Assembly (NCBI RefSeq): GCF_964204645.1
Contig: NC_134035.1
Coordinates: forward strand, 7,410,451 to 7,474,450
Length of the DNA: 64,000 nucleotides
Reading direction: 5' to 3'
DNA from: Tubulanus polymorphus
Taxonomy: Eukaryota; Animalia; Nemertea
Shown here in pieces: positions 30,001 through 64,000 of this stretch. Each line of letters opens with the position of its first letter. The first letter of the stretch is position 1. The notes under the pieces were generated by a model. The model was not told the origin of the DNA and made no database searches. It worked only from the letters and a program-made list of their open reading frames with translations. The translations under genes were made by a program, and so were the position numbers.

Positions 30001-33000
30001 AATAGAAATGAGCAGAACATTTTTTTGCCTCAAACCCCCACGCTACAGGCCTGTTCATAACATGATGTGGTATGACATAAAAACTTTACTTTTGGATTGG
30101 AAGACTCGATATATTGAGATCTAAGAACTAAATTGTAATTGAAAATGAACTAATTTTCATCAAGTATGTGTTATATTCTGGGGTACCATCTAACGGGATA
30201 ACTGGGTTTCTGGTACCTGATCTGCGCTAAACTGAGCGATTGGATGTTGTCAGGAATAATTTCTTATTGTATCTAATGACATTTTCGGTTTTATTTCAGA
30301 CCGGGGGTTTAAACGGGTTCATTCATAGTTTTATATCTGAAGTGTTAGCGATTGTACGAGCGCACGTGGTCGCTCTCGGTGGAAATGCATTGGTAGCGTA
30401 TAAGATGAGTGAATGTGTATTGCTCGATACACCGCACAAAAACCAGGTACATTTTAAATTGAAGTTTTGGCTTCATTTCTACTATGAATTTATCATTAGT
30501 TTCTCGATAAATAATGCTTATTAGTTTGCATTATTCGACTCAAATGCTGTGAGCAATTTTTGAAACAGATTTGACTTGTATTGCTTTGCTTTACATTGTT
30601 TGAATCTTAGTTTCCCAAAACTAACCTTATTTGACGTTCATTTATCTTCATGCAACAGCATCACGTCTTATCCCACTGAGCTACTGAGACTGTATATCTG
30701 GTTTCTGAACGCAGTGCTAACTGTAACACATGGTAGCCACAAGTTTACCCGTTGCTGGGTTAGAGTTCACTGAAATCTGAGTTTTTTTTTTAAAGAAATA
30801 ATAGATTCAATGATGGAGCAAAAGATCCTAAATGCTGAACCATGAACTACTTTAACTCTGCCACACACTTAGTGAAACGGCATATTTTTTATATCTCCTC
30901 TAGTTGATTCTACCCTTATGTAAACACCACATTATTGACTACATCTGATATTTCCTTCAGGATACGTTACGTGGGGCACATTTTAGAAGTTACCTTAGTT
31001 TGGGAACTATACCGCTAAACATTTTTTGGAGTACCCCGTACGTACGGTGGCGCCCCCATGAGCCACGTGACTCAATTTCTTCCTTAGCGCCGCCATTTTT
31101 GGGTGGTTCTTTCAATTTGGGAGCTGCCGTTTTCGATATTATTTGTGTTCGTGATGATTCAGTTCTGTTGGCTAGCTGGACCGTAATAGCACTTCGTTTC
31201 TTCGGTGAGTCCGTTACAATTCATTTTACCGAACAGAATTGCAATAAATTTGATCGTTAATACTCGCGGTCGGGGCAACTGCGACCACGTGCACAAGTGT
31301 TTCTTTCCCACGGTCGATTGATTTGTGCGGTGACTTCTCGCTAATAGCAAGCGAGCAGTCCGAGCCCGCTGACAATTCGTTTTCCTAAATAATTAAGAAA
31401 TTAATTATTAAATTAAATTGTCCGGGTTGTTTAAAAAATTTTTTTTTGTTCTTTCAGAATTGTAGTACTTAATTTTAATTAAACCTCGGCCTGAACCGGT
31501 TCCTAATTTTGTTCCAGTTCCGTCCGTAAGAAAGCCAGTCCCGACCCGGCTGGAACCAACTACCGGGTCTCGGACGGGTCCAAATGAGTCATCATCGAGA
31601 CGACTGTACATGCTTCGGCCCCGGCTAACCGCTCATATCCAAGTCCGGGGTCCGTTGCTGTACCAAAGAAAAGCCTAGACTCATCTGGTACAGGGATTTC
31701 GATCAGACTCAAATCTCCCGGACCAGGGACTGGGTCAACTCACTCAGCCGATCCAGGACTACCGCCCTCCAAAGGAAGGCCGGAGTCTCGTTTTTCTCCA
31801 CGAGCTCGCTCGCCCATGCGTCGCTCCCTGGGAGGAGGCGCAGGAAATGGTCACCGTCGCCCTCAGGCTCGACCTCATCCAGTAGGAAGAAGTAAGACCG
31901 TCACCGGCGTAGACGGGCACGTTCCCGGTCCAGCTCCTCATCGAGGTCTCGATCCTCGAGTAGGAGTCGAGTGCGTTCTCCACGCTATTACCGTAGCCGT
32001 CGAAGGAGGTTCCTTTCGCCGGAGCCGGCTGCTTCCACGTCCGGTTTCGTTTCGGCTGAGGATTTGAAGGCATTTCATGCAGAAATGCGTAGTATGTTGG
32101 AGTCGGTAAAGGGTCCTCTAGGCTCGACCGGAGCCGGAGCGCCAACCGCCTTCATCTGACTCGGAAAACTCCCGTCTCAAGGATGTTCCCCTCACGGTCC
32201 CCGACCCTAAGGATGTTGATGAATATTCCTTAGAGGCAGGCCACGGCACGCGTTCAGGCTCTAAGAAGCCATCGCCTCGGGTCCCGCCCGGAGGGTCCAC
32301 TTCCCACCCTCTGTTGGCGTTTGACCGACCGCCCAGTCCTGCGGCCTCGATCAACACGACTTTTGACAGTTCGACACCAGCAGATAGCCCTTTCCATCTC
32401 TTATTCAAGAGGTTTTCCGCAAGCATGGCGCCACTGTGCCTAAGCCTCATAAGTCTACGGATCAGGCTGAGTGTATGGCCTCGTATGCTGCCTCCGGATG
32501 AGACTCTCATGCTCTCCGCGAGTCCTCCGCGGTGACGGCCGAGTGGACACGGATCGATAGGCACTTGTGGGGTCAGGATCGGCCAACTGGTTTTGCCTAC
32601 CCCCACCGGAATCGGGTCTCAAGCAGGGAAAGCTCCTTTCTCTTGCTGAGCCACCGATCCCCGGTTTTAGAACATCCTATTATCATACACCCGGGTCAAC
32701 TGAACGTTTGCATGGTTCGGTGGAGGCGGACGTTAGATCGATTTTTTCCTCACCGTCGGTCGCGCCCGACCTTAACATTCAAATGCCTACGGCAGGGGTG
32801 ACCTCTTCCTTGTCATTCCTGGAAAATATTACGCGTATCGGGAGTTTCCAAGATATGGCCTTGTTGTCTCTGATAGGTAAGCTCCAGACATGAGCCCCAA
32901 GAGAGGTCAGGAGGTGCACATCACCCCTGTAATCGAAGAGTTGTTACAGAAGGGCGCACTCCAGCCGGTACAAAACGAATCCTCTCCAGGCTGGAGCTCG

Positions 33001-36000
33001 CGACTGTTTACCGTGCCCAAGGCCTCCGGAGGCCTACGCATGGTAATAGACTTGTCCCTTCTCAACAGACATCTCAGGGTGCCAAAGTTTCGCATGACCA
33101 CGCCGATGCAAGTAGTTCAGGCGTTCCGTCCCGGTCAATGGGCAGCGTCGATCGATCTGAAGGACGCATACTTCCAGGTACCGATACATCCCAAATCGCG
33201 TCGCTACCTCCGGGTCAAGTGGAAGGGTCGTCAGTATCAGTTCTCGGCACTTCCTTTCGGTCTAAGCTCGGCACCCTGGGTGTTCACCAAGCTGGTCAAA
33301 CCAGTCCAACGATATCTTCAAAAGAAAGGTGTGAAGATTTTCGTATATCTGGACGACTGGTTAATTGTGGGCAACTATCGGGACGAATGTCAGGCATCCA
33401 TCGACTTAGTTCTGGACCTGGTGCGGGAATTGGGCTTCAGGATAAATCTCGAGAAGTCCCAATTACACCCGTCACAAATATTCACCTACCTGGGCATGGA
33501 GTTTGACCTTCGCAAGGGCCAGGTGTTTCCCACTCAGGCCAGGGTAGACAAACTGCGGGAAGCTGTATCCGGCCTGTCGAGCACACCTCGGTCAGCGCGG
33601 TTCTGGTCCCGAGTCCTCTGTCAAATGAGCTCCATGTCCCTGGTGATTCCGCTGGGTCGCCTTCACAGCCGGCCATTTCAACGTTTTTGGAAGGCCTGCT
33701 GGCTACGATCGACAGGAGATTGGGAGGCTCTGCTGCCGTTTCCTCCTCCGGATCTGGATCCAGAGCTAAGTTGGTGATCGTCCCTTCGCAATCTAGAGGA
33801 AGGGTACTTCTCTGGCACCACTCCAAGCCCCCCTCCGGCTGTTTACCGACGCGAGTCATGCAGGTTGGGGTGCTCATTTGGAGAATTATCAGAAGGCCAG
33901 GAGATGCTCTCATCAGGAGGGGCTTCTCCATATCAATCAGTTAGAGCTCTTAGCGGTGCGCAAAGCCCTGGGTTTCTTTCACAGGAGGTTGACAGGCAGA
34001 CACGTGTGGTTAGCCACCGACAACCAGACGGTCAGGGCCTATCTTCAGAACCAAGGAGGCACCAGATCAGTTACGCTTACCGCTCTCATGGTGGAGATTC
34101 TTATCTGATGTCAAGCTCGAGGAATTCACCTTTCCGTGGTTCACCTGGCGGGCAAGAGGAACGTCGTTGCCGATGCCCTTTCCCGTCAGGATGCGGCCAT
34201 TTCTACCGAATGGTCACTTCACAGGGAAGTGGCAGTTCGAGTGGGGTCCCTGGTAGGCGTTCCGTTAATAGATCTGTTCGCCACCAGGTTCAACAAGAGG
34301 TTCCCGCTGTTTGTGTCATGTCCGATTCAAGTCTTATCAGCAGTCCTCGAAAAGATACAGCTGGCGTCCTCTTGTCTGATTGTTCTGATCGCGCCTTTCT
34401 GGCCAGCTCAGGCGTGGTTCAGTCGTCTTCTCAACCTTCTGTGCGACAATCCCAGGTGCTTGCCGCAATTTCCATCCCTCCTGTCGCAGAGGGGTTTCCG
34501 GAGGCACCCGGCACTAAAGATGCTCAACCTTCACACCTGGCCGTTGTCGAGTGACGCTTGGCGAGTGCAGGCTTTTCAGTCAGGGCTTCCTCGTTCATCG
34601 CTAAATCCAAACGCCCTAGTACAGGCGGGATTTATAACTCCAAGTGGAAGATCTATGGCGATTGGTGTAGTCAACGGTGGTTTGATCCATGCACTCCCCC
34701 TGTAGCCGCCCTTGCTGAATTCGTCCTCTTTCTTTTTGAGGTCAAAGGACAGCAGGTGGTAACCATTAAGGGTTACCGGTCCGCTATCGGCCATACTTTC
34801 AGGGCCGCTGGTATTCCGGACCTGACTACTGATCCCCGTATTTCCCAGCTCATTGCCGGTTTCACAGTAGCCCGGCCGAAAGTGCCTCGGGAAATCCCTC
34901 CATGGGACTTGGGGGTGGTCTTGAGATTTCTCATGGCTAGTCCGTATGAACCCCTCTCCGAAGTGAGTCTGTCCAAGCTCACTAAGAAAACAGTTTTTCT
35001 TATGTTTTTGGCTATGTCCGCTAGGAGGTCCGAAATTCATGCATTAACGACTCGACCTGGTCATATCGTTTTCGGTCCTGGTCATCGTTTTGTTGTTCTC
35101 CGCCCTTACCTCAATTTTATCGCTAAGAATCAAAGACCAGGTGCGGTTGGTAGAGAGTGGAGGGTGGAGGCTCTAACGCATAGGGTTCAATCCGACCTTC
35201 CAGATCGGGCGCTTTGTCTGGTTCGGGCATTATTTTATTTGCGTCGAACAGCCTCACTTCGGGGAGAGAGGGATCGGTTGTTTATTATGCTGAATGAGCA
35301 GTCCTCGAAGGATGTCTCGAAGGATACTATTGGTTGGTGGGTTTCAGAACTCATTCGTGAGGCCTCATCTTCGGTAGATGCCGAGTCTACTTGTGTTGTC
35401 AGTCATCAGGTGCGCGCGATGGCGACTTCGTGGGCAGCTTTTTCGGGCGCATCCATTGAGGAGGTTTGTCGAGGTGCATTCTGGAATAGTCAGAATACTT
35501 TTGCTTCCTTTTATTTGAAGGATGTGTCGGGACAGTTGGGTTCTCTTTCGTCGGTGGGCCCAGCGGTCATTGCTCAGGGCGTTCAGGTTTTTCCCTCGGG
35601 GTCTGCTCACTCCAGTTCTCATCCTGTAGATATATCGGATCCGTTTGATCCAAGTCAAAATGATTATTGATTGTTTTGCATTATTTTGGCTGTTTTCGTT
35701 TGTTCCGCAGCTAAGACCCAGGGGGTTTTTGCTGCCGGAATATCCTGGGGAGTGTGTTTGCCGTTCCGATTTAACGGGATTCATTTTCTCTCATAACCTG
35801 TACATATGTGAGCTTAAGCTAGGATATATCTGTACATGTATATGTTTTCTGTTGCTCCGGGCGTGAGTATAGTCTGGAATCTTTGTGCTGGGAGCAGTTA
35901 TATTTAACTTCGCAGGACCTTGTTGCCGAGAGCGATGGGCTAGTTCGGTAATTTGGTTTTGGCGCAGTTTTCAGGGTGAGTAATTTCCTTCTTTGAACAC

Positions 36001-49823: not shown

Positions 49824-50030
49824 AGTAATAGGGGTAATGGGCTTTCATACCAAAGGTCGAAAGGTCGAGCCCGAGAAATTTTCCAAAATGTTAAAATAAC
49901 AACAATTTCTACTTGAATTAGTCGCGTACACTCCTAATTCAAGTAGAAATTATTATTATTTTAACATTTGGAAAATTTATCAACCTCAACCTTTCGACCT
50001 TTGATATGAAAGCCCATTACCCCTATTACT
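49824..50030. repeat. Terminal 207-bp fold-back palindrome of the Polinton
   Basis: Arms 49824-49921 and 49934-50030 (8 mismatches, 1 indel), with a 12-nt loop TCGCGTACACTC. Confidence 0.92.
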
Positions 50031-50031
50031 C

Positions 50032-50067
50032 TTAAATGTTATTCATATATATATGAATAACATTTAA
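50032..50067. repeat. Perfect 36-bp palindrome upstream of pPolB
   Basis: TTAAATGTTATTCATATA|TATATGAATAACATTTAA. Confidence 0.9.
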
Positions 50068-50114
50068 ATCATTGAACTTCTAAAATCAATTTTAATAAAA
50101 AATATAGTATTAAA

Positions 50115-53100
50115 ATGGAAGCAAATAAGTACTACTGCCCAACATGTAATATCGATATAGATAAATCCCAAAAAGCAAGACACAATAAAACTAGAACACA
50201 TTTAGAGAATAAATTGAAATTAGAATATGAAGATGATATATTAGAAAATAAATTAGAAGAATTAAAGGATGAAAAAGAAACATACAAATGTGATACATGT
50301 AATCAATCATTCAGTGATAAAAGATATTATAAAGAACATTTAAAATCTATAAGTCATATTAGAAATAAGAATAATGATATTTTAGGTGAAGATTATTTTG
50401 ATAATGATAACGATAAGAAACAGAAGACAATTAAAAGAATAAAAAATAAATTAAACAATAAAAGACCATATATGGAAGATGTAAGAAATTATATTAATTC
50501 ATTAGATAATAAAAAAGATATAGAGATAACCGAAGCATTTAAAAGTGATATTGGTCCAGCAGCTATCGAGTTTAAATTTCATAAAGGTAAAACATTAGAA
50601 GAAAATAAAAAACATTTAGAAAATATGAAAGAAATAATAAAAATAATTACAAACGTAGAATATCCTAAAATAAGTATATCTTCTAAAGTAAAGTTTATAA
50701 AATCTGAAGATAAACCAATATATAATATAAATTCTCATTCACAACATATTATATCTAAACAACATATAGATGATAAATTAGATAAATGTTATAATGAAAT
50801 AAAAACTAAAATAGAAGAGAAATATTTTGAAGGATCTGGTTTAATATTTGATGAGATAATATTTATAACTTTACATGTTTATAACACAAAATATAATAAG
50901 TTAACTAAATCAAAACCAATTGATGAAAATAATTTATCATATTATAAAGAACCCGATATTGAAGCATCAAGTTATATTAAACTACCATTTAAAACTAATG
51001 CTGTAATAAATATACAAAATGAAGATGATAAATGTTTTCTATGGGCTATAATAAGTTGTTTACATCCAACAGAAGATATTACACATAGTTTTAGATTAAC
51101 TCATTATAAACCATTTGAAAATAATTATAAGATAGATAAGTATCCTGTTAGAATTAAAAATATTCCAAAAATAGAAAGAGATAATAATATAAAGATAAAT
51201 GTATTTGATTTAATTAAATTACCAAATACAAAAGGAAATAATATTAAACATTATACATTAGAACCTTTATACCTATCAAAAGATTATGATTCAAATGATG
51301 TTATAGATATACTATATTATGAAAATCATTACATGTGGATTAAACAAATCGATTTATTTTTCAAATCAGAAAATGATCACCATAAAATATATCTATGTAG
51401 AAAATGTTTACATAGATTCAGTAATGAAAGTACATTATTAAATCATAAACAACTATGTGATAATCATGATTATTGTAAATTAGTTTTACCAAATGAAAAG
51501 GATAAAATATTAGAATTCAAAAAATATGATTACAAAAATAAAGTACCATTTGTAATATATGGAGATTTTGAATCATTAAATAAAGAATTAACAGATAAAG
51601 ATAGAAAAGATATATATTATAAAAGAAAGAAATTAAATTCTAATGAAAGTGATTATTCAGAAGACCCACCAAAAACAAATACAATTAAAAAGATTCATCA
51701 ATCAGCTGCAGCTTTCGGGTTATATATTAAATCTAATTATCCAGAACTAATCGAAAGTGAATATTATAATTATAGAAATGAAAATGTTATCAATCATTTT
51801 TGTGACTTATTAATTGAATATGAAATAAGATTTAGTAAATTATTGAATACAAATATAGAAATTATTATGACAGAAGAAGATAAAGAAGAATTTGAGTTTG
51901 CAGATAAATGTTATTATTGTGAAAAGATATTTAATTATAAAGATAAAAAAGTAAGAGATCATGATCATTTGAATGGAAAGTTTAGAGGCGCTGCACATGA
52001 GAATTGTAACTTACAAGCTAAGAAAATTAACTTTGTACCAGTTATATTTCATAATCTATCAGGATATGATGCACATTTATTTATCAAACAGCTATGTTAT
52101 AAAATAGAAGAAATCAATAATGAAATAGAAATATTAAATTCAAATAGATCAAAAGATAAAATACCAACTTATAAATTTAGAATGTTAGCTAAAACATCTG
52201 AGAATTATATATCATTCCAATTTGGTTGTTTAAGATTTATAGATTCATATAGATTTTTAAATAGTTCATTAGATAACTTATCAAAATCATTAGTTAATGA
52301 TGAATTAAAGATATTAAAAGAATATTACCCAAATAATGATGATTTTCAATTAATGAGATATAAAGGCGCAATTCCATATTCTTTCTATAAAAATCATAAT
52401 GATTTTAACATAACTGAATTATTAAAAGAACAATTCTATGACGAATTAAAAAAATGAATATGTTAAAGATGAAGTTTATAATAGAACATTGAATATTTGG
52501 AATCATTTTGAAATTAAAAATCATGGACAATTAGTAGATTTATATTTAAAATCAGATGTATTATTATTAACCGATATATTCGAAAGGTTTAGAGATGTAA
52601 ACCTAAAATATTTTAACATTGATCCTTGTCATTGTTATTCATCACCAGGATTAACATGGGATTGTGGATTAAAATTTACAGATATAAAAATGGATTTGTT
52701 AACAAATATAGATCAATTACTATTATTTGAAAAATCTATAAGAGGAGGTGTTTCAGGTGTATTGGGTGATAGATATTTCAATGTAAATGATAATCCTGGA
52801 TATAAATTATTATACATAGATGCAAATAATCTTTATGGTTGGGCAATGATGGAACCACAACCTTATGGGATGTTTGAAATAACTGAAGTTTTACAAATTG
52901 ATAAATTTGATTGGAAGAAAAGAATCCTAGATATTGCAGATGATTCAGATACTGGTTACTTCTTTGTTGTAGATTTAGAATACCCTGAAAATATTAAATT
53001 CAAATCTAGAAATCTAGCATATTGTCCCGAACATAAAACTGTTAAACATGAAGAATTATCAAATTATCAAAAAAGAATTAAACCCGATAATCATATTCAT

Positions 53101-54144
53101 ACTGAAAAGTTAATGGTGACTCAAGAAGATAAATATAATTATGTAGTACATTATAGAATGTTGAAGTTTTATTTGAATCAAGGAATGATTCTAAAAAAAG
53201 TACATAGATATATTTCATTCAGTCAATCTAAATGGTTAGAAAAATATATAGATTTTAATACTACACAGAGAACTAAATCTAAAACTGATTTTGAAAAAGA
53301 TTTCTTCAAACTAATGAATAATGCATTCTATGGTAAGACTTGTGAAAATATTAGAAATAGAAATGATATTGAGTTAGTTAGTAATGGTAAAAGAATTAGA
53401 CATTTACAATCGTATCCGAAATTCATAGGTAATAGAATATTCGATGAAAATTTAGCAGCAGTTAAATTAAAAAGAACTTCTATGAAGTTCAATAAACCTA
53501 TTTATGTTGGAGCATCGGTTTTAGAAATTTCAAAATTACTAATGTATAAATTTTACTATAACATATTACAACCCCATTTTGGAGAAAAACACATAGAAAT
53601 TCTATACTTTGATACCGACAGTTACATATTAAAGATAAAAACTGATAACATAACAGATGATTTAAAAACATTAAAACACCATTTTGATTTTAGTAATTAT
53701 CCTAAAAATCATGAATTGTTTAGCAATGATAATAAAAAAGTTCCTGGGAAGTTTAAGGATGAATTAGGTGGTGAAGAAATGATAGAGTTCATTGGTATTA
53801 GATCTAAAATGTATTCATATAAAACCAAAACTCATGAAGCTAAAAAGTTAAAAGGAATAACCAAAAGCGTTGTTGAAAAGAATATTCATTTCAAAGATTA
53901 CATCAATTGTATATTTAATGAAGAAGTTAGAAAACATAAAATGAAATGTTTAAGATCTGAAGATCATGAAATGTATATTGAAGAGATAGAGAAGATAAGT
54001 TTGAATCCATTTGATGATAAAAGATATATTTTAGATGATGGAATCCACACAGTCGCCTATGGTTGCAATTTAGATGAATATATAAAATTCAAAAGAGAAG
54101 AAACAAAAGAAAATGAGATTATGAAAAGGATTCTAACGTGTTAA
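50115..54144 (+). CDS. Protein-primed family B DNA polymerase (pPolB) with N-terminal C2H2 Zn fingers and an endonuclease VII-like insertion; split by one frameshift
   Basis: Exonuclease motifs YGDFES, HNLSGYD and FIDS; polymerase motifs YIDANNLYG, KLMNNAFYGK, YFDTDS and KMY. EndoVII-like CYYC...VRDHDHLNGKFRGAAHENCN. ORFs 50115-52457 and 52489-54144 join if one A is removed from the A7 run at 52448-52454. Confidence 0.93.
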
Positions 54145-54152
54145 TAAATTTC

Positions 54153-54175
54153 AATAAAAATTTGTATAATAAATG
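54153..54175 (+). promoter_or_regulatory. Putative intermediate-type promoter AATAAAAA-N-TAAATG (representative)
   Basis: AATAAAAA starts 20-21 nt before the ATG at 50094, 54153 and 61208; variant AATAAGAAAA at 54510. Confidence 0.6.
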
Positions 54176-54514
54176 GAGAGTAAACAAGTACACAGTGAAT
54201 TCTTAGATAGAATTAAAGATACTTCAAGCGTTAAATCTGTAGATTATAAATTCAAAAAGTTAACAGAATTAACAATTCACAAGAAATATTTAATTACTAA
54301 CATTGAAACAATTACTAATAAATATGGAGATAAATTAGTAATTCATTTAGAATATGAAGGATTAAAAGGAAATATATATAAATTCAGAACTTATTTACCA
54401 GATAGATTTCATAGATTATCAAGTGAAGATCTAGAAGAATTATGTTCTGGAGATTTCTATTTCGTATATAAAGGTAAGAATGAAAAAGGGCACCACGATA
54501 TTGATTTCGAATAA
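54173..54514 (+). CDS. Small Polinton protein, putative OB-fold ssDNA-binding protein
   Basis: 113-aa ORF right after pPolB; FKKLTEL...NKYGDKLVIHL...YLPDRF resembles small beta-rich proteins that I recall adjacent to pPolB in invertebrate Polintons. Function is inferred. Confidence 0.55.
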   Translation: MESKQVHSEFLDRIKDTSSVKSVDYKFKKLTELTIHKKYLITNIETITNKYGDKLVIHLEYEGLKGNIYKFRTYLPDRFHRLSSEDLEELCSGDFYFVYKGKNEKGHHDIDFE

Positions 54515-54531
54515 GAAAATATGTAAAATAA

Positions 54532-55290
54532 ATGGCGGAATTAAAAGAATACAGAATATTTGTAGATTCTAGAAAACTTACAAATTATAAATCTCATAAT
54601 TTACTAATACAATTAGATAGAGAATTCAAGAATTGTGTTGATTTAAAATTAGTAAATATAAGTTTATGTAATTCTTTTTACAATATATCGAATAAAACTA
54701 TTGAACATAATACTTTTTTAATTCATATTAGAAATATAAATAAATGGTTTCATCTATTTCTAAGACCAGGATTATATAATTTAGAAACATTATCTCAAGA
54801 AATTAATCGTAGAGCACGGTTGAAAATTAGAAAAGATGATAAATTTTTAATAAGATTTATAAAAAGTGATAGCTCAAATAGAATTAAAATAAAGGTATTT
54901 GATGAAAGTCAACATGCATTTATGGTAAAAAAACCTATAGCTAAATTGCTAGGAATTGAACCAGATGTTGTTACAGTAAACGTAGAAGGTATTTCAAATA
55001 TAATACCTTTTACACATTTTTATATTTATTGCAATTTAATTGACCCAACAAAAACATTTGAAGCAACTAACGATACAACATGTAATTCTAGTATATTAAA
55101 TATTTTACCATTAAAAAATGTTAAAGAATTTGGAACGCAAATAAATTATAATTTAACAGAATGTGATTTCAAACCATGCATTCCTCGTTTTAATAATTTT
55201 AGATTAGAAATTAGAAATCATAATGGATACTTAATTGATTTGAATAACTTTCCTGTAATTTATGAATTAGTTATAAGATGTAAAGAGTAA
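54532..55290 (+). CDS. Minor capsid protein (penton, single jelly roll)
   Basis: IFVDSR...SFYNIS...PGLYNLETL...FYIYCNLID...ILNILP...LEIRNHNGYLIDLNNFPVIYEL pattern typical of Polinton/virophage pentons; 252 aa, intact. Confidence 0.8.
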   Translation: MAELKEYRIFVDSRKLTNYKSHNLLIQLDREFKNCVDLKLVNISLCNSFYNISNKTIEHNTFLIHIRNINKWFHLFLRPGLYNLETLSQEINRRARLKIRKDDKFLIRFIKSDSSNRIKIKVFDESQHAFMVKKPIAKLLGIEPDVVTVNVEGISNIIPFTHFYIYCNLIDPTKTFEATNDTTCNSSILNILPLKNVKEFGTQINYNLTECDFKPCIPRFNNFRLEIRNHNGYLIDLNNFPVIYELVIRCKE

Positions 55291-55307
55291 TTTTTTTCAC
55301 TATATAA

Positions 55308-55649
55308 ATGAATATAACTGTTGGACCGAGTATATGTTTTGGGTTTGATTTTAAACATGGTAAAGAAATGAGAATTAAACTAAATGATGTAATTACTGAT
55401 ATAAAAAGTAAATCATTTAACAATGCATCAATGATTGATTAAGAAAAGTATAATATAGAAAAAGTAATTGATTTAATTAAATCACCTTTAGAATATTATG
55501 AATTAAATGAAGATGGAATTATTGAAGATATTAAAAACATATTATCCAAAATATATGATAATCATAAAACTAGTAATAAAATAAATGTTGAATTAATCAT
55601 AAATAAGTTAACTAAATATTTTGAAGATAGTAATTTTTTTGATAAATAA
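55308..55649 (+). pseudogene. Hypothetical 113-codon Polinton gene with one in-frame TAA (55440-55442)
   Basis: TAAATG start; MNITVGPSICFGFDFKHG...MID*EKYNIEKVIDL...NFFDK* fills the gap between its neighbours. Missing from the ORF track. Confidence 0.7.
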
Positions 55650-55871
55650 ATGAGTGATAATAAGTGGATAATAACTGGATTATATAATGGCGCATTACTA
55701 TCAGTTGGAACTGTTGGTTATTCAATGGTATTAAAAAAAGTATTCAAAATGGGAAGTGTTGATGTTGATAGATTTGATATAAATGATATTTTAAAGTTAA
55801 CATTAGCAGTTACTTTATCTAATTTAACTATTGATTATTTGGAAAAACAAAAATATATTCCTCCCATATAA
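55650..55871 (+). CDS. Small hydrophobic Polinton protein (73 aa)
   Basis: TAAATG start; two hydrophobic helices. Confidence 0.75.
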   Translation: MSDNKWIITGLYNGALLSVGTVGYSMVLKKVFKMGSVDVDRFDINDILKLTLAVTLSNLTIDYLEKQKYIPPI

Positions 55872-55895
55872 ATGCATAATTTTTTTGCTAAATAA

Positions 55896-56318
55896 ATGGC
55901 TTCTGCAATTATAACTATTATAGGATCAGCAATTGTTAACGCTTTAGCATTTACTGGTGGTGGTTATTTATTTAAACATATTGATAAAAATAGTTCATTA
56001 GGAGAACAAAGAAGACATAACTTAGCGTTAGAGAAATATAATAAAGCTGCAGAAGAATATAGAGAAAAGAGACAAAACTATATGGATTATATTAACAAAG
56101 AATTATATGATCAGAAGATTTCACATAGAGATTTTCAATCAGTTGATGATGCAATGAGTTTATATAACGCTGTAACCAATAAAGAAAAATTACATCTATA
56201 CAAACCTAAATTATCAGATTATTATACCCCAAGTAAAGAACAACAGAAATATGAAATAATATGGATTTTAGGTGGAACTGTTATTGTTATATTTGTTGCT
56301 TATAAGTTTACTAATTAG
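55896..56318 (+). CDS. Polinton membrane protein (140 aa): N-terminal hydrophobic helix, EQRRHN coiled segment, C-terminal TM
   Basis: MASAIITIIGSAIVNALAFTGGGYLF; C-terminal IIWILGGTVIVIFVAY. Confidence 0.8.
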   Translation: MASAIITIIGSAIVNALAFTGGGYLFKHIDKNSSLGEQRRHNLALEKYNKAAEEYREKRQNYMDYINKELYDQKISHRDFQSVDDAMSLYNAVTNKEKLHLYKPKLSDYYTPSKEQQKYEIIWILGGTVIVIFVAYKFTN

Positions 56319-56337
56319 TAATTTTTTTGTTAAATAA

Positions 56338-56772
56338 ATGGAAGATAAAGTTGATAATATTGATATTATTCCTCATGATATAAATAAAACTAAATTAAAA
56401 ACATATTTAGAAAAACAAATATTAGAATTTGAAAGTGACTTAAAAGTTAAAAAGAAAAAATATTTAAAAAGTAAAATTATATATTATTTGATTATAAGTG
56501 GTTCGGTTACAATTAGTTCTGTAATAACATTTCTAGCAATATTCAGCCCATTAACACCTTTAGCTATATCAATTGGTGTGTTAGGATTAAGTTCAAGTGT
56601 TTTAACTGGTATAAGTTCAAAATTAAATATAAAAAGTAATAAAGAAAAAATTAAAACTAATATAAAAGAAATTAATAAATTAAAAAATACACTAGATTAT
56701 ATAATAAGTTTAAATGGTCATATAACAGTTGAAGAACAAGATAAATTATTAAAAGAATTAATAAATTATTAA
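56338..56772 (+). CDS. Polinton two-TM coiled-coil protein (144 aa)
   Basis: Hydrophobic hairpin IIYYLIISGSVTISSVITFLAIF-SP-LTPLAISIGVLGLSSSVLTGI flanked by K/E-rich helices. Confidence 0.8.
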   Translation: MEDKVDNIDIIPHDINKTKLKTYLEKQILEFESDLKVKKKKYLKSKIIYYLIISGSVTISSVITFLAIFSPLTPLAISIGVLGLSSSVLTGISSKLNIKSNKEKIKTNIKEINKLKNTLDYIISLNGHITVEEQDKLLKELINY

Positions 56773-56788
56773 TTTTTTAATTATATAA

Positions 56789-58177
56789 ATGGTAGATAGT
56801 TTTCCAAAAGCTTTCCAATATAATAAATCAATTAAATATAATATTCCAGCAATAGATTTTAATAAAGATATTACATATAGAAATGAAGTTTTAGATTCAT
56901 TAATTGATTTATATATTTATGTTACTGAAACTAATAATTTTAATGCAAAGATGGAAAATATATTTCATGTATATTTAATTAATTTTAAAAAATTGAAAGA
57001 TGAAAAACAATGGTTATTAAAATCTAATATGAAGTATTGGCAGAATCAATTAAATTTTGCTGTTTATTGTGCAACAACAGGATGTGGAATTAGTTGGAAT
57101 GATCATTTGAATAATTCTAAATATAAACTAATTCAAAGTTTATTTAGATTTCATACATACTTTCAAATCAGAATAATATTAAATGAATTAGAGTGTGCTT
57201 TACCAGGATCTAGGTATTTCAAAGAATTAGATAATAATATTAATTTATCAAAGTTTTATAAAATTTGCAATGAATTTAATATAGATATAAATAATTCTGA
57301 TTTTAGAATAAAAATTGGAACAATAAGATCACTTCCATGCCCTAGAAAGATTGCAGAATATTGTGCACTTCCCATACCATCTAATAGCTTTTATAATATC
57401 TATAATAAAAAATTAGGTTATGGTAAAATAGAAACAAAGGATTTAGAAACATTAAATTTCAATAAATTACCAAAATTTTATGATAATTTAAAACAAGAAA
57501 ACAATAATGGTTGGGTTTATTTTATTTTAGAAAATAGTGAAGGTTTTACTAAATCAGGTATAGAAAGAATAAATCAATCTATTAGAACTTATTTGATTTG
57601 TATTCTAGGATCACAAGTTGAAACAAGATCACCAATAATTGGAAATTTGAATACATCATTCGATACACAAAAACAATTTAAAGTTTTATTTGAAGATTCA
57701 ATTCATAATGATAAAAATAGATCGATTCCAGAAAACATTATAAGATATCAAAATTATTTAGATAAATCTCATGTAAGACTAAATTATTGTATAGGCCCTA
57801 ATCTATTAATTATTTCTAATGATTTAGTATTGAAGATGGGAAATATAATTGGTTATAATAATCTAATTAAAACTGCAACAATAAATAATTCATTTGGGTT
57901 AAATGATATAAATAAAAAGATTATTACTGCTCCAAAATTAATGGAAGGTGAAAAAAATAAAAAACATATTCAATCAACAGAAACTAAAACTAAGAATATT
58001 AAATTAAATAATGATTCTAAAATAAAAGATTACAATACATCAGAAGATATAAAAACTGATAAAATTTAACATGATATAATTAAACTAAATGATGATAATA
58101 AATCCCATGAAAATACTAAATTAGCTATAACTTGTATAGGAATTGTAATCGGAGGAATATTATATTTTAAATTTTAA
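56789..58177 (+). CDS. Uncharacterised Polinton protein with C-terminal TM anchor; premature TAA at 58067-58069
   Basis: 426-aa ORF (YWQNQLNFAVYCATTGCGIS...) continues in frame after the TAA as HDIIKL...HENTKLAITCIGIVIGGILYFKF* to 58177, which closes the intergenic gap. Confidence 0.75.
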
Positions 58178-58193
58178 TTTTTTTATTATGTAA

Positions 58194-59902
58194 ATGGATG
58201 TAGAAGGTGGAGAAGATTATGAAATGGGAGAAATGGGAAATAATAATGAAGGATATATTGATGATGATTATAATGATGCAGGTGCTAATATTGATAATGA
58301 TGATGAATCATCATATAATACTAATTTAGGTGAAGATGATGATTATGATGATGATTATGATGATGATCCCGAATTACGTGAAAAATTAAATAAATATTTA
58401 GAAGCTCCTGAAAGGGGTAGAATTTCAACTAGAAGAGAAAGAAAAGAATTTATGGAACTATTAGAAAAACAACAAGAAAAATATCCTGATAAACCTATGG
58501 AATTATATAAAATGAAATCTAGAGTAACAGATACAATTGTTAACGAACTATTACCAAAAGTTGTAATAGATGAAATTGATACTGAAGGTGTTGTAGAACA
58601 AATTTTTAAAGATGACCCATATTTCACAAATAATTTAGAATTTAAAAATGATGCAAGGTATTATAATCTTGAATTAAATAGGAATACTGTATCAATTCAA
58701 TTATCTAGAATGGGTCAAGAAAATATTTTTGAACCTGGAATGCGAGCAACATCTACAATTGAAGGTTCAAAAGGTGGTAGAGAATTTCTCAGAATTATAT
58801 GGAATGCACTCGATAGAATAAATGAAAAAGAACCAATTCCTAATATTGATATAAACAAATATTCACCATTTAAAAATCCAAATCCAAATCCTACTGATTT
58901 TGATCCAGAAATGGAAGAGAATAGAAATCGATTAGATAGATTAAGATCTTCAACACCCGAAACATCGAGAAGAGACACTCAACAAATTGATAATGATTCA
59001 AGTAAATTACAATTAGAAAATTAAATTGATAGATTAAGAGATTCAGAAGAAGAAATGAATAGTACTGGAATAAATCGACTGCAATATTTACTAGAAAAAG
59101 GATTATTTGATTTAACTGATGATGAATTAGAAGCATTTCCTGAACAAACACGTAGAGAAATTAAAGGTACGCAAGAATCAGCTGATAAAATTGCGCATGA
59201 TAAAAGTATAAGAGATTTTAAAATTAGAACTTTAGAAAAAGAATTAACTGATAAAAATAAAGAAATAGAACAATTAAAATTAGATAGAGATAATAAAGTT
59301 ATTGAAGAAATTGAATTTAAAAAAAGAAATGCATATTTAGAAAAAGAAAAAGATGATTTAGAATATAACATAGAATTACAAAAAGAAGAAATTAAATCAT
59401 TATTAAAATCATATGATTATAATATTAATAGATTTTTAAAAGTTATTTTTAAAGATTTGTTGATAAAACCAAATTCTGAAATATCATTAAAAGACAGAAT
59501 AAAGTTATTATTTAAGTTAGAAGGAATAACAATTCTTTCAATTCTAACAGCTGTAACTATGTTATTTACAACATGTTATTTACAACAATTGGTTTAGCAA
59601 TATCAAATGCTTTGAAATCTACTCCTACTCCAAATAAACCGGATAAACCCCCGAATGATAATAATTCTATACAAGATAAAGTTAAAGATGGTTTAAAGAA
59701 ATTAGCAAAATATTTATGGGAACTATCAAAGAAATCTGCTGCAGCACTACCAGGAGTTATTGCTTCAATTGTTGGTTTTATATTGAAATCTGCAGGAAAC
59801 ATTATTAACTTTGCTGCTGAACATATTATTTTATTTTTAATTACGGTTGTAAGTGCTATTATTTTTGGTTTAGTAAATATGATATCAAAAAATATCAAGT
59901 AA
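58194..59902 (+). pseudogene. Acidic / coiled-coil / C-terminal multi-helix membrane protein (about 564 aa restored), disrupted twice
   Basis: ORFs 58194-59024 and 59055-59597 are in the same frame across a TAA at 59022. A 14-bp tandem duplication ATGTTATTTACAAC (59559-59586) shifts the frame into ORF 59573-59902. Confidence 0.8.
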
Positions 59903-59927
59903 ACCATGATATCAAAAAATAAATAAT

Positions 59928-59950
59928 TAATTTTTTTTGTTAAATAAATG
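59928..59950 (+). promoter_or_regulatory. Putative late-type promoter of MCP, TAATTTTTTTT-N-TAAATG (representative of 7 copies)
   Basis: The same motif starts at 55288, 55631, 55877, 56319, 56770, 58175 and 59928, always 19-20 nt before the ATG. Confidence 0.7.
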
Positions 59951-61195
59951 AGTGGGAGTTATATAAGTCCTTCGAAGATTTCTAGAATATCTAACGCTAT
60001 TAAAGCAGAAAGATCACATCATATAATTACTCATAACCCTTCAAATATTAATCCCGATGAAACTTTATACGTTAGAATTCCGAGATTAACACAAAATACT
60101 TTTTATGTTCCAAACAGTATTTATTTATCAGCTGATATAAAAGTAATCGGTAATAATAATAATTATGTTGTTGATAATGTTGGAAGATATTTGATTAAAA
60201 AGTTAACAATAAAGATTGGTCCAGAAACAGTTTTCTCATTAGATGATTATAATTTATTTATGCATTATAAAGATTTATGGTTAACTAAAGAAAATAGAAA
60301 TAATATGATATTTCAGGGTATTCAATCAGAAAACCAAAATAAATTAAGATCAGAAGCTAATAGCGCAATATTAACTAATGATGTAGATAAATTGATAAAA
60401 AGTATATATGGAAGCAAATATAAAATTCCATTAGACTTTGAATTGATAAATAATAATGCACCTTTATATAAATACGCAATTCAAGAAGATATTATATTTG
60501 AGATAACATTTGCTCCTGTTAATGAAATTGTATTATCTAGCGTTAATAAAGATATGAGTAATAAATTATCGAATATATGTTTAGAATATGATACAGTAAC
60601 TGATGAAAATATTTCAAGTATAATTCAAACTCAATACAATCAAGGATTTTCATTATTATATGATTATATTGATAAATTTAAAACTGTAACTATTAATGCA
60701 AATGATGAAATAATTAATGAGAATATTAACTTCCCTAGAAGATCTATTAAAGGTATATTAATATTTTTTACCATTGGAACGTATACTAATGGTGCAATAA
60801 ATGTTGACAATTATTATAATCCTGAAATAACAAAAGTAGAAATAACTATCGAAGGAATAGCGAATAAAATATTTTGTCAAGGAATGAGAATGATTGATCA
60901 ATGGGTAGAAATTAAAAAACATTTTATGAATGAAAAAATAAAATCATTTGAAAATTGTAACATTAATCAAATTGATTATTATACCGGTAATAAATATGCA
61001 TTATGGTTAGATTTTAGAACAACTGAAGATAATTCATTACATGGTTCTGGGAAAAAACTACAAAATACAAAAGATGGAATACAATTATTCATAACAAAGA
61101 AAAAGGGAATCAAAAATTTTAAAATGCACATTTATATTATATCTGACGCGCAATTAAATATTGTAAATTCTCAATTAGATAGTGTTATGTATTAA
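59948..61195 (+). CDS. Major capsid protein (double jelly roll)
   Basis: 415 aa, intact, beta-rich; NPSNINPDETLYVRIP, NVGRYLIKKL, YKIPLDF, NICLEYD, RRSIKGILIFF and YALWLDFRT resemble invertebrate Polinton MCPs; size and context fit. Confidence 0.82.
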   Translation: MSGSYISPSKISRISNAIKAERSHHIITHNPSNINPDETLYVRIPRLTQNTFYVPNSIYLSADIKVIGNNNNYVVDNVGRYLIKKLTIKIGPETVFSLDDYNLFMHYKDLWLTKENRNNMIFQGIQSENQNKLRSEANSAILTNDVDKLIKSIYGSKYKIPLDFELINNNAPLYKYAIQEDIIFEITFAPVNEIVLSSVNKDMSNKLSNICLEYDTVTDENISSIIQTQYNQGFSLLYDYIDKFKTVTINANDEIINENINFPRRSIKGILIFFTIGTYTNGAINVDNYYNPEITKVEITIEGIANKIFCQGMRMIDQWVEIKKHFMNEKIKSFENCNINQIDYYTGNKYALWLDFRTTEDNSLHGSGKKLQNTKDGIQLFITKKKGIKNFKMHIYIISDAQLNIVNSQLDSVMY

Positions 61196-61227
61196 AATTT
61201 TAACTTTAATAAAAATATATATAATAA

Positions 61228-62283
61228 ATGGAAGGTGGAATATATGAAATACAATCTCCAAGTGAAATGATATCAGATATATATTATATATTACCTTATG
61301 ATGAATACAGTAAGTATTTTGGAGATTACTTTAATCAATTCAAATATAGAATAAGTAAAATAGATAAGAATATTGAAACAAAAATAGAAGATAATATTGA
61401 ACCTAAAATAGAAGATAAGAATGATATTGAATATAAAATAGAAGATGATATTGAATCTAAAATAGAAGATAATGTTATACCTTCTACATCGAATGATGAT
61501 AAGATTGAAACAAAAATAGAATATAATATTGAACCTAAAATAGAAAAATCAAATGTTCAACCAAAAGATAACATCAGATGTATGTATTGTGAAGAAGATT
61601 TTGATAATTACAATGATTATTTATTACACATCAAAAAAGATGAACATATTTTACAATTAGTAAAAACATATGCCAATATATATAAAGATAAATGCAAAGA
61701 GGATCAGAATTATTGTGCCTTCTGTAATGAATGTATAACAAAGGCTAATTGGGCAAAACATTATAAATTAAAAACAAAAGGTGGAAATGATTCAGCCCAT
61801 GCAATACAAGTATTTAAATCTTGGTGTGAAAAATGTAAAGAATATGTAATATATGATAAACAATTGAATCATAAATACTCAATTAAACATATTGGTACAG
61901 ATAATGTAATAGAAAATCCAACAGTTATAAATCCAAAATTTAATAATAAGAATATATTAGATTATCGGTGGTATAGAAAAACATTTATAGATTATTTCTT
62001 GAGTAATGATATAGTTACCATATTGAAAAAGTTAGATAACTTTAAACCAAATGTAACTTATGCAATGAACTTATTTGAACTTAAATATGATGATTTTAGA
62101 GAATTTTTAAATAAACATCCATCTAAAACTGAAATCGAAAATTATATTCCAAAAATATTTTCAAGAGAAACATTTAGGAAATATAAACTCGAGAATTATT
62201 TAGGAATTATACCAAAGAAAATGCAAAGGGATATATATTTAGAATACAATAAGCTTAAAGAAAAATATGAAAATGAAAATTAA
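61228..62283 (+). CDS. Zinc-finger protein with KIE(D/Y)NIEP repeats (351 aa)
   Basis: CMYC...HIKKDEH, CAFC...KH...H and CEKC...HKYSIKH fingers; tandem peptide repeats at about 61370-61550. Confidence 0.75.
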   Translation: MEGGIYEIQSPSEMISDIYYILPYDEYSKYFGDYFNQFKYRISKIDKNIETKIEDNIEPKIEDKNDIEYKIEDDIESKIEDNVIPSTSNDDKIETKIEYNIEPKIEKSNVQPKDNIRCMYCEEDFDNYNDYLLHIKKDEHILQLVKTYANIYKDKCKEDQNYCAFCNECITKANWAKHYKLKTKGGNDSAHAIQVFKSWCEKCKEYVIYDKQLNHKYSIKHIGTDNVIENPTVINPKFNNKNILDYRWYRKTFIDYFLSNDIVTILKKLDNFKPNVTYAMNLFELKYDDFREFLNKHPSKTEIENYIPKIFSRETFRKYKLENYLGIIPKKMQRDIYLEYNKLKEKYENEN

Positions 62284-62287
62284 AAAG

Positions 62288-62667
62288 ATTATAGAATTCA
62301 CTGTATATTGATGGATGAATGGATGAGTTGGATGAGTTGGAAGAATTGGATGAGTGGAAGAGTGGATGAGTATAATAATATATATATTTTACTTTTTAAC
62401 ACATAAATTGGAAGAATAGTATGAGTATAAATATAATATTTTTATTCTTTATTAAATTTAACACAATATATATATATATTATTAAAATAATATTTAAATA
62501 TAGTATAAAATTGATAAAATAACTTCAAATCAAACTCTTACTGTTTTAAAAATAAAAAACATATGTAAATTATATATTATTACACTCATCCATTCATCCA
62601 CTCATCCAATTCATCCAATTCATCCAATTCATCCACTCATCCATTAGTATACAGTGAATTCTATAAT
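62288..62667. repeat. Inverted repeat (97-bp arms with 7 TGGA(T/A)GA(A/G) iterons each) between convergent Polinton genes
   Basis: 62288-62384 versus 62571-62667, 9 mismatches and no gaps, around an extremely AT-rich spacer. Confidence 0.9.
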
Positions 62668-62683
62668 ATTTTGAATTAGGATT

Positions 62684-63298
62684 TTATTTTATAAATTTAT
62701 ATTCATATGGAAATTGTAATCTCATAAGTAATTTGGAACCTTTATTATTCTTTAATTTATTCATATATTCATCATGTAATTCAGTAGGTATAATTTGATT
62801 TTCTTCCAATGATTGTTGCATAGATTTTTTATCTTTGTTATAAAATAAAACTAGAAATCTTATATTCTCTCTAAAGTCTTTCACAATTGAATTATATTTC
62901 TGATTTAAAACCCAAGTTGTTATCCCAAAATGTCTCCCAGAGAAAGCTAAATAACATAACTCACTTTCTCTAACTTTTGAATCATGTAAATTTGCGCAAT
63001 CATCGATAATAAATAATGTATTAGATCCTTTATAAATATCTAATGCAATTTTTATACAATTATCTAAATTATCTTTCACTGTTTTAGAATTTAATATAAT
63101 AAACTTTTTATCTTTAAAAACTATATCTCTATTGTACGTTTCATTCATTTCATAAGTTGGGCAGAATAATATTATATTATCAAAATGATTCTGATAAATA
63201 GTTTCTAATAAATCTAATATGAAGTGTGTTTTACCACAATTTGTAACTCCAGTTATTAACATATTATGTGGTTCAAATATAAATAAATCTTTATTCAT
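62684..63298 (-). CDS. A32/FtsK-like genome packaging ATPase
   Basis: Walker A GVTNCGKT, Walker B FIIDD, SGRH arginine-finger motif; 204 aa, intact. Confidence 0.92.
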   Translation of the reverse strand: MNKDLFIFEPHNMLITGVTNCGKTHFILDLLETIYQNHFDNIILFCPTYEMNETYNRDIVFKDKKFIILNSKTVKDNLDNCIKIALDIYKGSNTLFIIDDCANLHDSKVRESELCYLAFSGRHFGITTWVLNQKYNSIVKDFRENIRFLVLFYNKDKKSMQQSLEENQIIPTELHDEYMNKLKNNKGSKLLMRLQFPYEYKFIK

Positions 63299-64000
63299 TT
63301 ATTCTTTTAATTTTACTAGATAAAATCCATTCATTAAATTTATCATCGTATCCTTTATATTTCACCAAAGAATACTTTTTTCCTTTAAGAGTTTTAGTTT
63401 TCAATACCTTTTCTATTTTGTATTCTATTTCATCTGGATTTGGTACTAATGCTAATTCTTGTTCATAAAAATAACCTAATATTTCTTCATCTTTTAAATC
63501 AAACAATTTATAAACAAATGGTTTAGTTAATATTATCTTTTTAATTTTAAATATTTCTTCAGTAAAATTAGGGGTATAACCTTTATAAAATGTTTTTCGA
63601 TATTTAGAAATTCTAACATGTTGTCCTATTTTAAATTTAGGTTCTCCGAAATCATGTGTAACAAACGCACCATATAAATTATTCCAAACTCTTCTGAATT
63701 TTCTTCTTGTCTAGCTTGTATAGGTTTCATATTTATAGAACTATGTTTAGAATTATTATAACCTTTAACTAAATCATCTAACACATCGATATATTTATAT
63801 GTTTCATTAGCGGTGAAATATTTCCACATTCTAGTTTTCAATGTTTTATTAAATCTTTCTATAACAGATGCTTTTTTATCTGAATGTGTTGAAAAATATT
63901 CTACATCGTTATCAGTTAATAGTTTTTTAAAATGTTTGTTATAAAATTCTTTACCTTCATCAAATTGTATTTTATCTGGGATAGCTTCTTTAAATATTAA
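63291..64000 (-). CDS. Retroviral-type (rve) integrase with C-terminal chromodomain; 5' part outside window, frameshift near 63690
   Basis: IQFDEGKEF...ASVIERFNKTLK (second D and E of the DDE triad), YNNSKHSSINMKP; after a 1-nt loss, KFKIGQHVRISK...YKIEKVLK...LVKYKGYDDKFNEW (chromodomain). Confidence 0.9.

Follow-up and report, generated by a model that had tools for sequence, protein, structure and literature searches.

A Polinton-type provirus of Tubulanus polymorphus with poxvirus-like start signals in two forms

Results

Start signals of the element

A window of 64,000 nucleotides from the nemertean Tubulanus polymorphus (contig NC_134035.1, positions 7,410,451 to 7,474,450; coordinates below are those of the window unless a locus is named) contains a Polinton-type provirus with several broken genes. 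Judged from the sequence, its genes are preceded by promoter-like cores at fixed spacing, in the layout of poxvirus post-replicative promoters, and these cores come in two forms, much as an initial annotation of the window had proposed. Close relatives keep the form per gene. The architecture is poxvirus-like, but it gives no confident reading of the stage of expression.

All 12 readable gene starts of the element, 11 on the + strand and that of the packaging ATPase on the - strand, lie in TAAA(A)TG, with TAAAATG found only for the protein-primed family B polymerase (pPolB), and an A/T-only core lies 9-16 nt upstream of each. This core is T-rich at seven genes, including those for the major capsid protein (MCP) and a block of hydrophobic proteins, and A-rich at the five genes for pPolB, an SSB-like protein, the penton, a Zn-finger protein and the packaging ATPase, the last of which had been overlooked in the initial annotation. 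Ten nt ahead of the initiator T, all 7 T-type starts have T and all 5 A-type starts have A.

The word described for the T-type genes, TAATTTTTT, is found in seven copies on the + strand of 49.5-64 kb (55288, 55631, 55877, 56319, 56770, 58175 and 59928), every one of them 19-20 nt ahead of an ATG set in TAAATG. We also found the A word, AATAAAAA, where it had been placed, 20-21 nt ahead of pPolB (50094), the SSB-like gene (54153) and the Zn-finger gene (61208), and its variant before the penton, starting at 54510. This word is present 14 times on the + strand of the same region, with 11 copies away from these starts; the T word is specific (7/7 copies at starts) and the A word is not (3/14). 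It was correctly noted that the TAA of TAATTTTTT is not the first upstream stop in four cases; it is the upstream stop at 55288 and 56770, and at 58175 it closes a 35-codon frame. The copy reported inside a coding region is that at 55631, which falls within an open frame 62 codons long or longer, probably the remnant of a broken gene. The TAA was considered as an essential part of the T form and rejected, since in relatives the tract is preceded by ct-, gc-, gg- or aag-.

These forms were compared with internal sites. A run of 5 T at -20..-10 is found at 7/11 + strand starts versus 1/58 internal AAATG sites (Fisher p 2e-6), and AATAAAAA upstream of 3/11 + strand starts versus 0/58 such sites (p 0.003). 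Neither form was found at internal TAAATG sites (0/20).

Form of the core and its conservation

The form of the core was analysed with 40 starts from the window and its close relatives L004, L006, L007 and L008; L005 was left out as a near-duplicate. From 10 to 14 nt ahead of the initiator T, these starts contain 0-5% G/C and 0-5% TpA steps, and 37/40 have T at position 9. The A-counts are two-humped, with 23 starts having 0-1 A, 2 having 2, 4 having 3 and 11 having 4-5, and their variance is 3.2 versus 1.1 under independent columns (0/5000 resamples). AATAA-N12/13-TAAA is present at seven A-form starts of this clade, where a separate upstream TTTT-AATAA is confined to the A form. Among more distant loci, with 56 starts, in-between cores are commoner. 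The two forms are best described as a single reversible A(n)T(m) tract, poor in TpA steps, whose A/T junction has two preferred places. Such A(n)T(m) tracts form one structural class, which is its own reverse complement, and divergent gene pairs in L012, L013 and L014 use a single tract, T-facing for the MCP and A-facing for the partner. In L051 and L076, divergent TAAATG pairs lie 17 nt apart, and the partner's initiator fills each gene's core position.

Conservation of the class per gene, named as a test in the initial annotation, was found among close relatives, where 22/24 pairs agree (within-locus permutation p 0.001), and not among distant ones, where 10/20 pairs agree (p 0.41); pair counts set mixed calls aside, and the distant pairs drop L013 and L016 as near-duplicates. 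Compared with the window, close relatives gave 12 starts of the same class, 2 flipped and 3 mixed of 17, the flips being in the SSB-like gene (T in L006) and the 55308 gene. Within the close clade the MCPs are 70-77% identical and the flanks mostly 30-55%. Further out, the MCP is A-type in L010, L015 and L016 and differs in class between the sister loci L010 and L011, and the penton is T-type in L072.

Start regimes among relatives

Scans with the MCP yielded 83 loci, of which 80 were the best of 199 in metagenomes and 3 came from a second scan, and a pPolB query of viral contigs gave 3 loci (L001-L003). The same viral contigs, queried with the MCP, the ATPase and the 426-aa protein, gave no relatives. 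Starts were taken blind as the first ATG of each open reading frame (ORF), 73 loci had scorable family genes, and groups were defined from these counts. Three regimes can be distinguished: TAAATG at 82/86 starts in 23 loci, AAAATG at 22/26 starts in 10 loci, and TAAATG at 0/204 starts in 40 further, mostly GC-rich loci of this MCP family. The TAAATG start is kept at a third-position GC content (GC3) of 0.44-0.54 in L010 and L011, and therefore this signal is not just a matter of composition. The AAAATG group, with L019, L020, L023, L024, L063, L065, L078 and L085 among its members, hints at another helper type.

A quick tree of the 43 MCPs of at least 330 aa (midpoint root, SH-aLRT only) placed the window MCP in a 15-row clade with support 99, nearly all TAAATG. 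Additional TAAATG loci and three loci without TAAATG fall on the window's side of this tree. On the same side are L047 and L048, a GC-rich element with TAAATG at 0/7 starts, a possible loss of the signal. The gene that follows the MCP is one of 8 different genes in 18 TAAATG loci versus the ATPase in 22/22 motif-less loci.

Class and gene function

The initial annotation assigned the A form to replication genes and the T form to virion genes. Our counts do not support this split (p 0.13 for the window, 0.29 for close relatives and 0.36 for all loci together). Against it stand the A-type cores of the penton, whose fold was confirmed, and of the packaging ATPase, the T-type cores of the SSB-like and deoxynucleoside kinase (dNK) genes in L006, and the A-type MCP genes listed above. 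The last ORF of L016 may be the start of pPolB (E 0.02) and was excluded from the function count, and the last ORF of L006 is not clearly pPolB. A dNK gene was seen in two relatives (L006:10340-10981, T-type, and L010:2895-3377).

In the close clade, the MCP and hydrophobic block have 14 T, no A and 1 mixed core at 15 starts, and the remaining genes 7 T, 11 A and 7 mixed, in a grouping picked after the data had been seen and with rows that share ancestry. Likely protein dose fits the split better than a division into replication and virion genes does.

Published poxvirus promoters and the two forms

In late poxvirus promoters, TAAATG is accompanied by a T conserved 10 nt upstream; intermediate promoters have TAAA, prefer A and lack this T (PMC11980589). 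The core is described as AT-rich, without consensus, 12 bp ahead of TAAA and with proposed shape readout one turn upstream, and the G8R promoter is printed with AATAA-N12-TAAA and then ATG (PMC12917281). For entomopoxviruses, no VITF-3 homologue was found according to PMC12917281, whereas a table in PMC4542343 lists A23R in all poxviruses.

In the element, the post-replicative layout is present at all starts, with TAAA(T) at or next to the ATG (12/12) and an A/T-rich core at fixed spacing. A-type starts have AATAA-N12-TAAA in 3/5 cases and lack T at 10 nt upstream in 5/5, and T-type starts have TAAATG and, 10 nt upstream, a T surrounded by more T in 7/7. The consensus T6-N7-9-YAAAW is matched by all 7 T-type starts.

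Gene content, ends and decay of the element

At about 49.8 kb the GC content falls from about 36-37% to 21-22% and stays low to the window end, and the genes of the element are tightly packed and intronless (Table 1). The features of Maverick/Polinton elements (Polintoviricetes) were found as follows. Family B motifs and homology to L001-L003, at 37-44% identity, identify pPolB, although its pieces gave no match to the DNA_pol_B_2 Pfam family. The integrase of L004 matches rve (E 2e-9). The predicted structure of the MCP (pLDDT 85) resembles double jelly-roll capsids (E 2e-15), the predicted penton model matches the mavirus penton (E 2e-7), and an A32 ATPase is present. No match to an adenovirus-type maturation protease was found among the proteins scanned; the element is cut off by the window. 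On L001 (6-3842, 10170-12047), a contig with a Sputnik-type MCP, pPolB is 41% identical to the C-terminal polymerase ORF of the window, so that this polymerase type is shared with a virophage.

Other assignments are less firm. The SSB label of the gene at 54173-54514, with a 36% identical orthologue in L006, is a lead only, from an Atlas score of 0.84 to a cluster with phi29 SSB on 44% of its members. The 426-aa protein has 1285 relatives at E<=0.001, and no Pfam family and no Atlas match of at least 0.9 was found for it. For the Zn-finger protein, proteins of similar length yielded no relative at E<=0.001, and most proteins of the hydrophobic block have no assigned function beyond their hydrophobic segments.

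A perfect 36-nt palindrome with TAAATG on both strands follows the left-end hairpin, and this region (49824-50067) may be a hairpin end or an origin. No comparable fold was seen beyond pPolB in six relatives. The right end, with any terminal inverted repeats or target-site duplication, lies outside the window. Close relatives have hairpins of unrelated sequence at the 3' end of the ATPase gene (L004:3720-3837, L008:3163-3275, L006:9173-9340, and also L005). Those of L004, L005 and L008 lie between the ATPase and the convergent Zn-finger gene, and the L006 hairpin differs in this. Terminators of mimivirus follow a hairpin rule, and by analogy these ATPase hairpins are possibly terminators too.

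The window copy (50115-64000) is decayed. Its polymerase is in two ORFs, the 58194 gene in three and the integrase in pieces, the 55308 gene is truncated, and the 426-aa gene is without an in-frame hydrophobic tail. The promoter cores of this copy are still intact. The host flank is gene-sparse, with a GC-rich DIRS-like retroelement at about 31500-36000 in which reverse transcriptase, RNase H and tyrosine recombinase frames were judged by eye.

Table 1. Position and basis of the putative promoters and other features of the element
Feature	Position	Strand	Basis or remark
Left end of element, 207-nt imperfect palindrome (hairpin) starting AGTAAT	49824..50030	.	DNA fold -81 kcal/mol, z -20; GC step
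A-type promoter, pPolB: TTTT-AATAA, 12-nt spacer, TAAA then ATG	50094..50117	+	Layout as vaccinia G8R scaffold in PMC12917281
pPolB, two ORFs (50115-52457 and 52690-54144)	50115..54144	+	Family B motifs in translation; Endonuclease_7 match
A-type promoter, SSB-like gene (54173-54514)	54153..54175	+	Motif and spacing; L006 orthologue T-type
A-type variant promoter, penton (54532-55290)	54510..54534	+	Motif variant; overlaps upstream stop
T-type promoter, truncated hypothetical gene	55288..55310	+	44 aa here, 126 aa in L006; A-type in L006
T-type promoter, 73-aa gene (55650-55871)	55631..55652	+	Motif and spacing
T-type promoter, 140-aa hydrophobic gene (55896-56318)	55877..55898	+	Motif and spacing
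T-type promoter, 144-aa hydrophobic gene (56338-56772)	56319..56340	+	Motif and spacing
T-type promoter, conserved 426-aa gene (56789-58069)	56770..56791	+	Motif and spacing
T-type promoter, coiled-coil/hydrophobic gene, three ORFs (58194-59902; 485 aa in L006)	58175..58196	+	
T-type promoter, MCP gene (59948-61195)	59928..59950	+	Motif and spacing
A-type promoter, Zn-finger-like gene (61228-62283)	61208..61230	+	A-type also in L004, L005, L008
Long inverted repeat between convergent Zn-finger and ATPase genes	62270..62685	.	115-nt arms, 88% complementary
A32-like packaging ATPase	63298-62684	-	Pox_A32 E 1e-12; absent from initial annotation
A-type promoter, packaging ATPase	63296..63316	-	Motif and spacing
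Retroviral-type integrase gene fragments, start beyond window	63300..64000	-	87% identity to L004 integrase

Discussion

How the signals may be read

The explanation we favour is that each gene of the element has its own poxvirus-style signal, that the RNA polymerase of a helper virus likely reads these signals in the cytoplasm, and that the A or T form likely sets a lower or earlier versus a higher or later output. We hold it to be evenly poised between right and wrong. No RNA polymerase gene was seen in the visible part of the element, and therefore its transcription would be borrowed. If the element exists as a free copy in the cytoplasm during infection by a poxvirus-like virus, it would offer the post-replicative factors a naked template. 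T-runs are linked to promoter strength, and a T-facing core would then give later or higher output of the bulk particle proteins (MCP and hydrophobic block) and an A-facing core earlier or lower output of polymerase, penton, packaging ATPase and Zn-finger protein, and one promoter per gene would free the gene order, which is scrambled after the MCP in TAAATG loci. A bolder version, which we put forward tentatively, is that the element is an endogenous virophage of an undiscovered poxvirus-like virus and has copied the intermediate-to-late switch of its helper; the orientation of A(n)T(m) would set the stage, and the three start regimes would be traces of changes among helper types and a helper-free lifestyle in the nucleus.

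Several results weigh against a helper-read signal with two outputs. TAAATG starts are frequent in unrelated AT-rich viral contigs too, so the helper need not be a poxvirus, and the T-form motif, searched against viral contigs, had 116 isolated matches and no contig using it systematically, and thus gave no helper candidate. No poxvirus transcription genes were found among the ORFs scanned. The class is lost beyond close relatives, and all distant loci compared with the window gave 7 starts of the same class, 9 flipped and 21 mixed of 37. Agreement among close relatives is inflated by shared ancestry, though their flanks are so divergent, and orthologous cores are no closer than non-orthologous cores of the same class. 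A control in a real poxvirus also failed to separate the stages. It used 16 post-replicative genes in the stretch L206, named by order and size with 11 Pfam-checked on L207, and stages carried over from a vaccinia table which gives the earliest stage; T at 10 nt upstream was found in 7/10 late and 4/6 intermediate genes (p 1.0), with late G3L having an A-run and intermediate G4L, J1R and I8R having T-runs. In favour of the reading, L3L (late, T8) and L4R (intermediate, A8) are on one tract in this stretch, of 33% GC, and in L204, of 66% GC, as are the divergent pairs of L012-L014.

Perhaps there is only one promoter class, with a core that works in either orientation, A versus T being neutral and near-identical T copies having spread by copying or recombination between gene junctions. 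Over 23 nt, four of the window copies are 83-100% identical; outside the window, intermediate cores (A3T4, A4T3) are frequent, with 21/37 distant orthologues mixed; the MCP changes class between sister loci; gene order is shuffled in the TAAATG group and not in motif-less loci; and the poxvirus control gave no stage signal. We nevertheless consider this doubtful, given that A-counts in the close clade have two humps and that a separate upstream TTTT-AATAA occurs there in the A form only, that its class is kept across loci with such divergent flanks, and that its bulk structural genes are never A-type. At the other extreme, the strict cascade of the initial annotation, in which true intermediate promoters would drive replication genes and true late ones virion genes, with timing set by a poxvirus helper, appears unlikely. 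The penton and ATPase are A-type, the SSB-like and dNK genes of L006 are T-type, the MCP is A-type in three loci, a T-tract precedes pPolB of L002 (in a different start context), and neither the test of function by class nor the poxvirus control supports it. Of the vaccinia counterparts, the A32 ATPase is intermediate, which counts for the cascade, and the capsid homologue D13 is also intermediate, which counts against it. The cascade does account for the clean split of the base 10 nt before the initiator T in the window, the position named in PMC11980589 as separating late from intermediate promoters, and for the A-type pPolB of both the window and L003; the helper's early motif before the polymerase and recombinase of Gezel-14T (bioRxiv 10.1101/2022.07.28.501842) is a parallel.

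The tracts could also be host nuclear signals, with AATAAA as the poly(A) signal of the upstream gene, the T-tract as terminator or nucleosome-excluding sequence and TAAATG as a stop-plus-start or Kozak-like context. AATAAA does occur within the A form. The initial annotation saw the poxviral early terminator TTTTTNT in the T-tracts, and this is true for 6/7 of them, that at 56770 being the exception; in coding strands TTTTTNT is rarer than expected (3 vs 9.1, p 0.009). However, A-runs are depleted there as much as T-runs (A6: 24 vs 38), and AATAAA is abundant (54 copies over 11.4 kb of coding strand, null 53), as would suit a transcript made outside the nucleus. Tract distance is fixed to the downstream ATG and not to the upstream stop. 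Moreover, pPolB is the first gene and has an A form with nothing upstream to end, tracts precede the MCP in divergent pairs without an upstream gene on that strand, and the T-tract is absent after pPolB, the SSB-like gene and the MCP. Host signals are accordingly quite improbable to us. A poly(A)-signal role of the A form was rejected, the tracts following the downstream ATG and AATAAA not being depleted, and so was an early-terminator role of the T-tracts, because their position tracks the downstream gene and runs are depleted generally. Chance in DNA of 22% GC, which could produce the 14 copies of AATAAAAA, hardly comes into consideration: all seven T motifs fall in 2-nt slots, and the internal-site controls and the persistence of the pattern in relatives refute it.

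These results bear on the lifestyle of animal Polintons, which may be nuclear viruses in their own right or may parasitize larger viruses. A promoter of poxvirus type at each gene of one lineage, but not in its GC-rich kin, would be a sequence marker for helper dependence, and the promoter type would name the kind of helper to look for; if the virophage reading is true, the helper would be predictable from sequence. The uniform A and T forms could also serve as a natural template set for what separates intermediate from late poxvirus promoters, a distinction which the poxvirus control suggests is not a simple base rule.

Comparison with known systems

With poxvirus promoters the element shares a TAAA(T) initiator overlapping the ATG, an A/T-rich core about one turn upstream and divergent pairs on one core, about 27-33 nt. 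The A form is like vaccinia G8R, with which the window pPolB shares AATAA-N12-TAAA and then ATG, and the T form is like poxvirus L3L and a late-promoter-like resolution site. Unlike in poxviruses, the signal is here on an integrated Polinton whose RNA polymerase gene is not in view, and the two forms are far more uniform, most promoters being mixed in the poxvirus stretch tested. No paper on poxvirus-type promoter classes in a Polinton was found among listed titles and abstract openings in a collection with few subscription journals, and no paper on a bidirectional promoter or with the word AAANAA came up.

Maverick/Polinton (adintovirus) proviruses (PMC8502044) have the same pPolB, rve integrase, A32 ATPase, double-jelly-roll MCP, penton and small hydrophobic genes. 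They differ in that 40 mostly GC-rich loci with an MCP of this family lack TAAATG starts and have a fixed gene order, and in that no protease was seen in the visible part of the window element. The entomopoxvirus-associated Polinton-like viruses (PLVs) of Barth et al. 2024 (PMC11296320) are likewise Polinton-like elements tied to a poxvirus helper in animals; the word 'promoter' does not occur in that paper or in Starrett et al.

Helper promoters on virophages and PLVs are already known, including the stage-specific one in Gezel-14T, and Sputnik and mavirus have helper-type late promoters. These are also small double-jelly-roll viruses with a helper-type promoter per gene, and a stage-specific motif on replication genes has its precedent among them. 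Their motifs are those of Mimiviridae-type helpers in protists, whereas the signals described here are poxvirus-like, precede every gene and come in two complementary forms.

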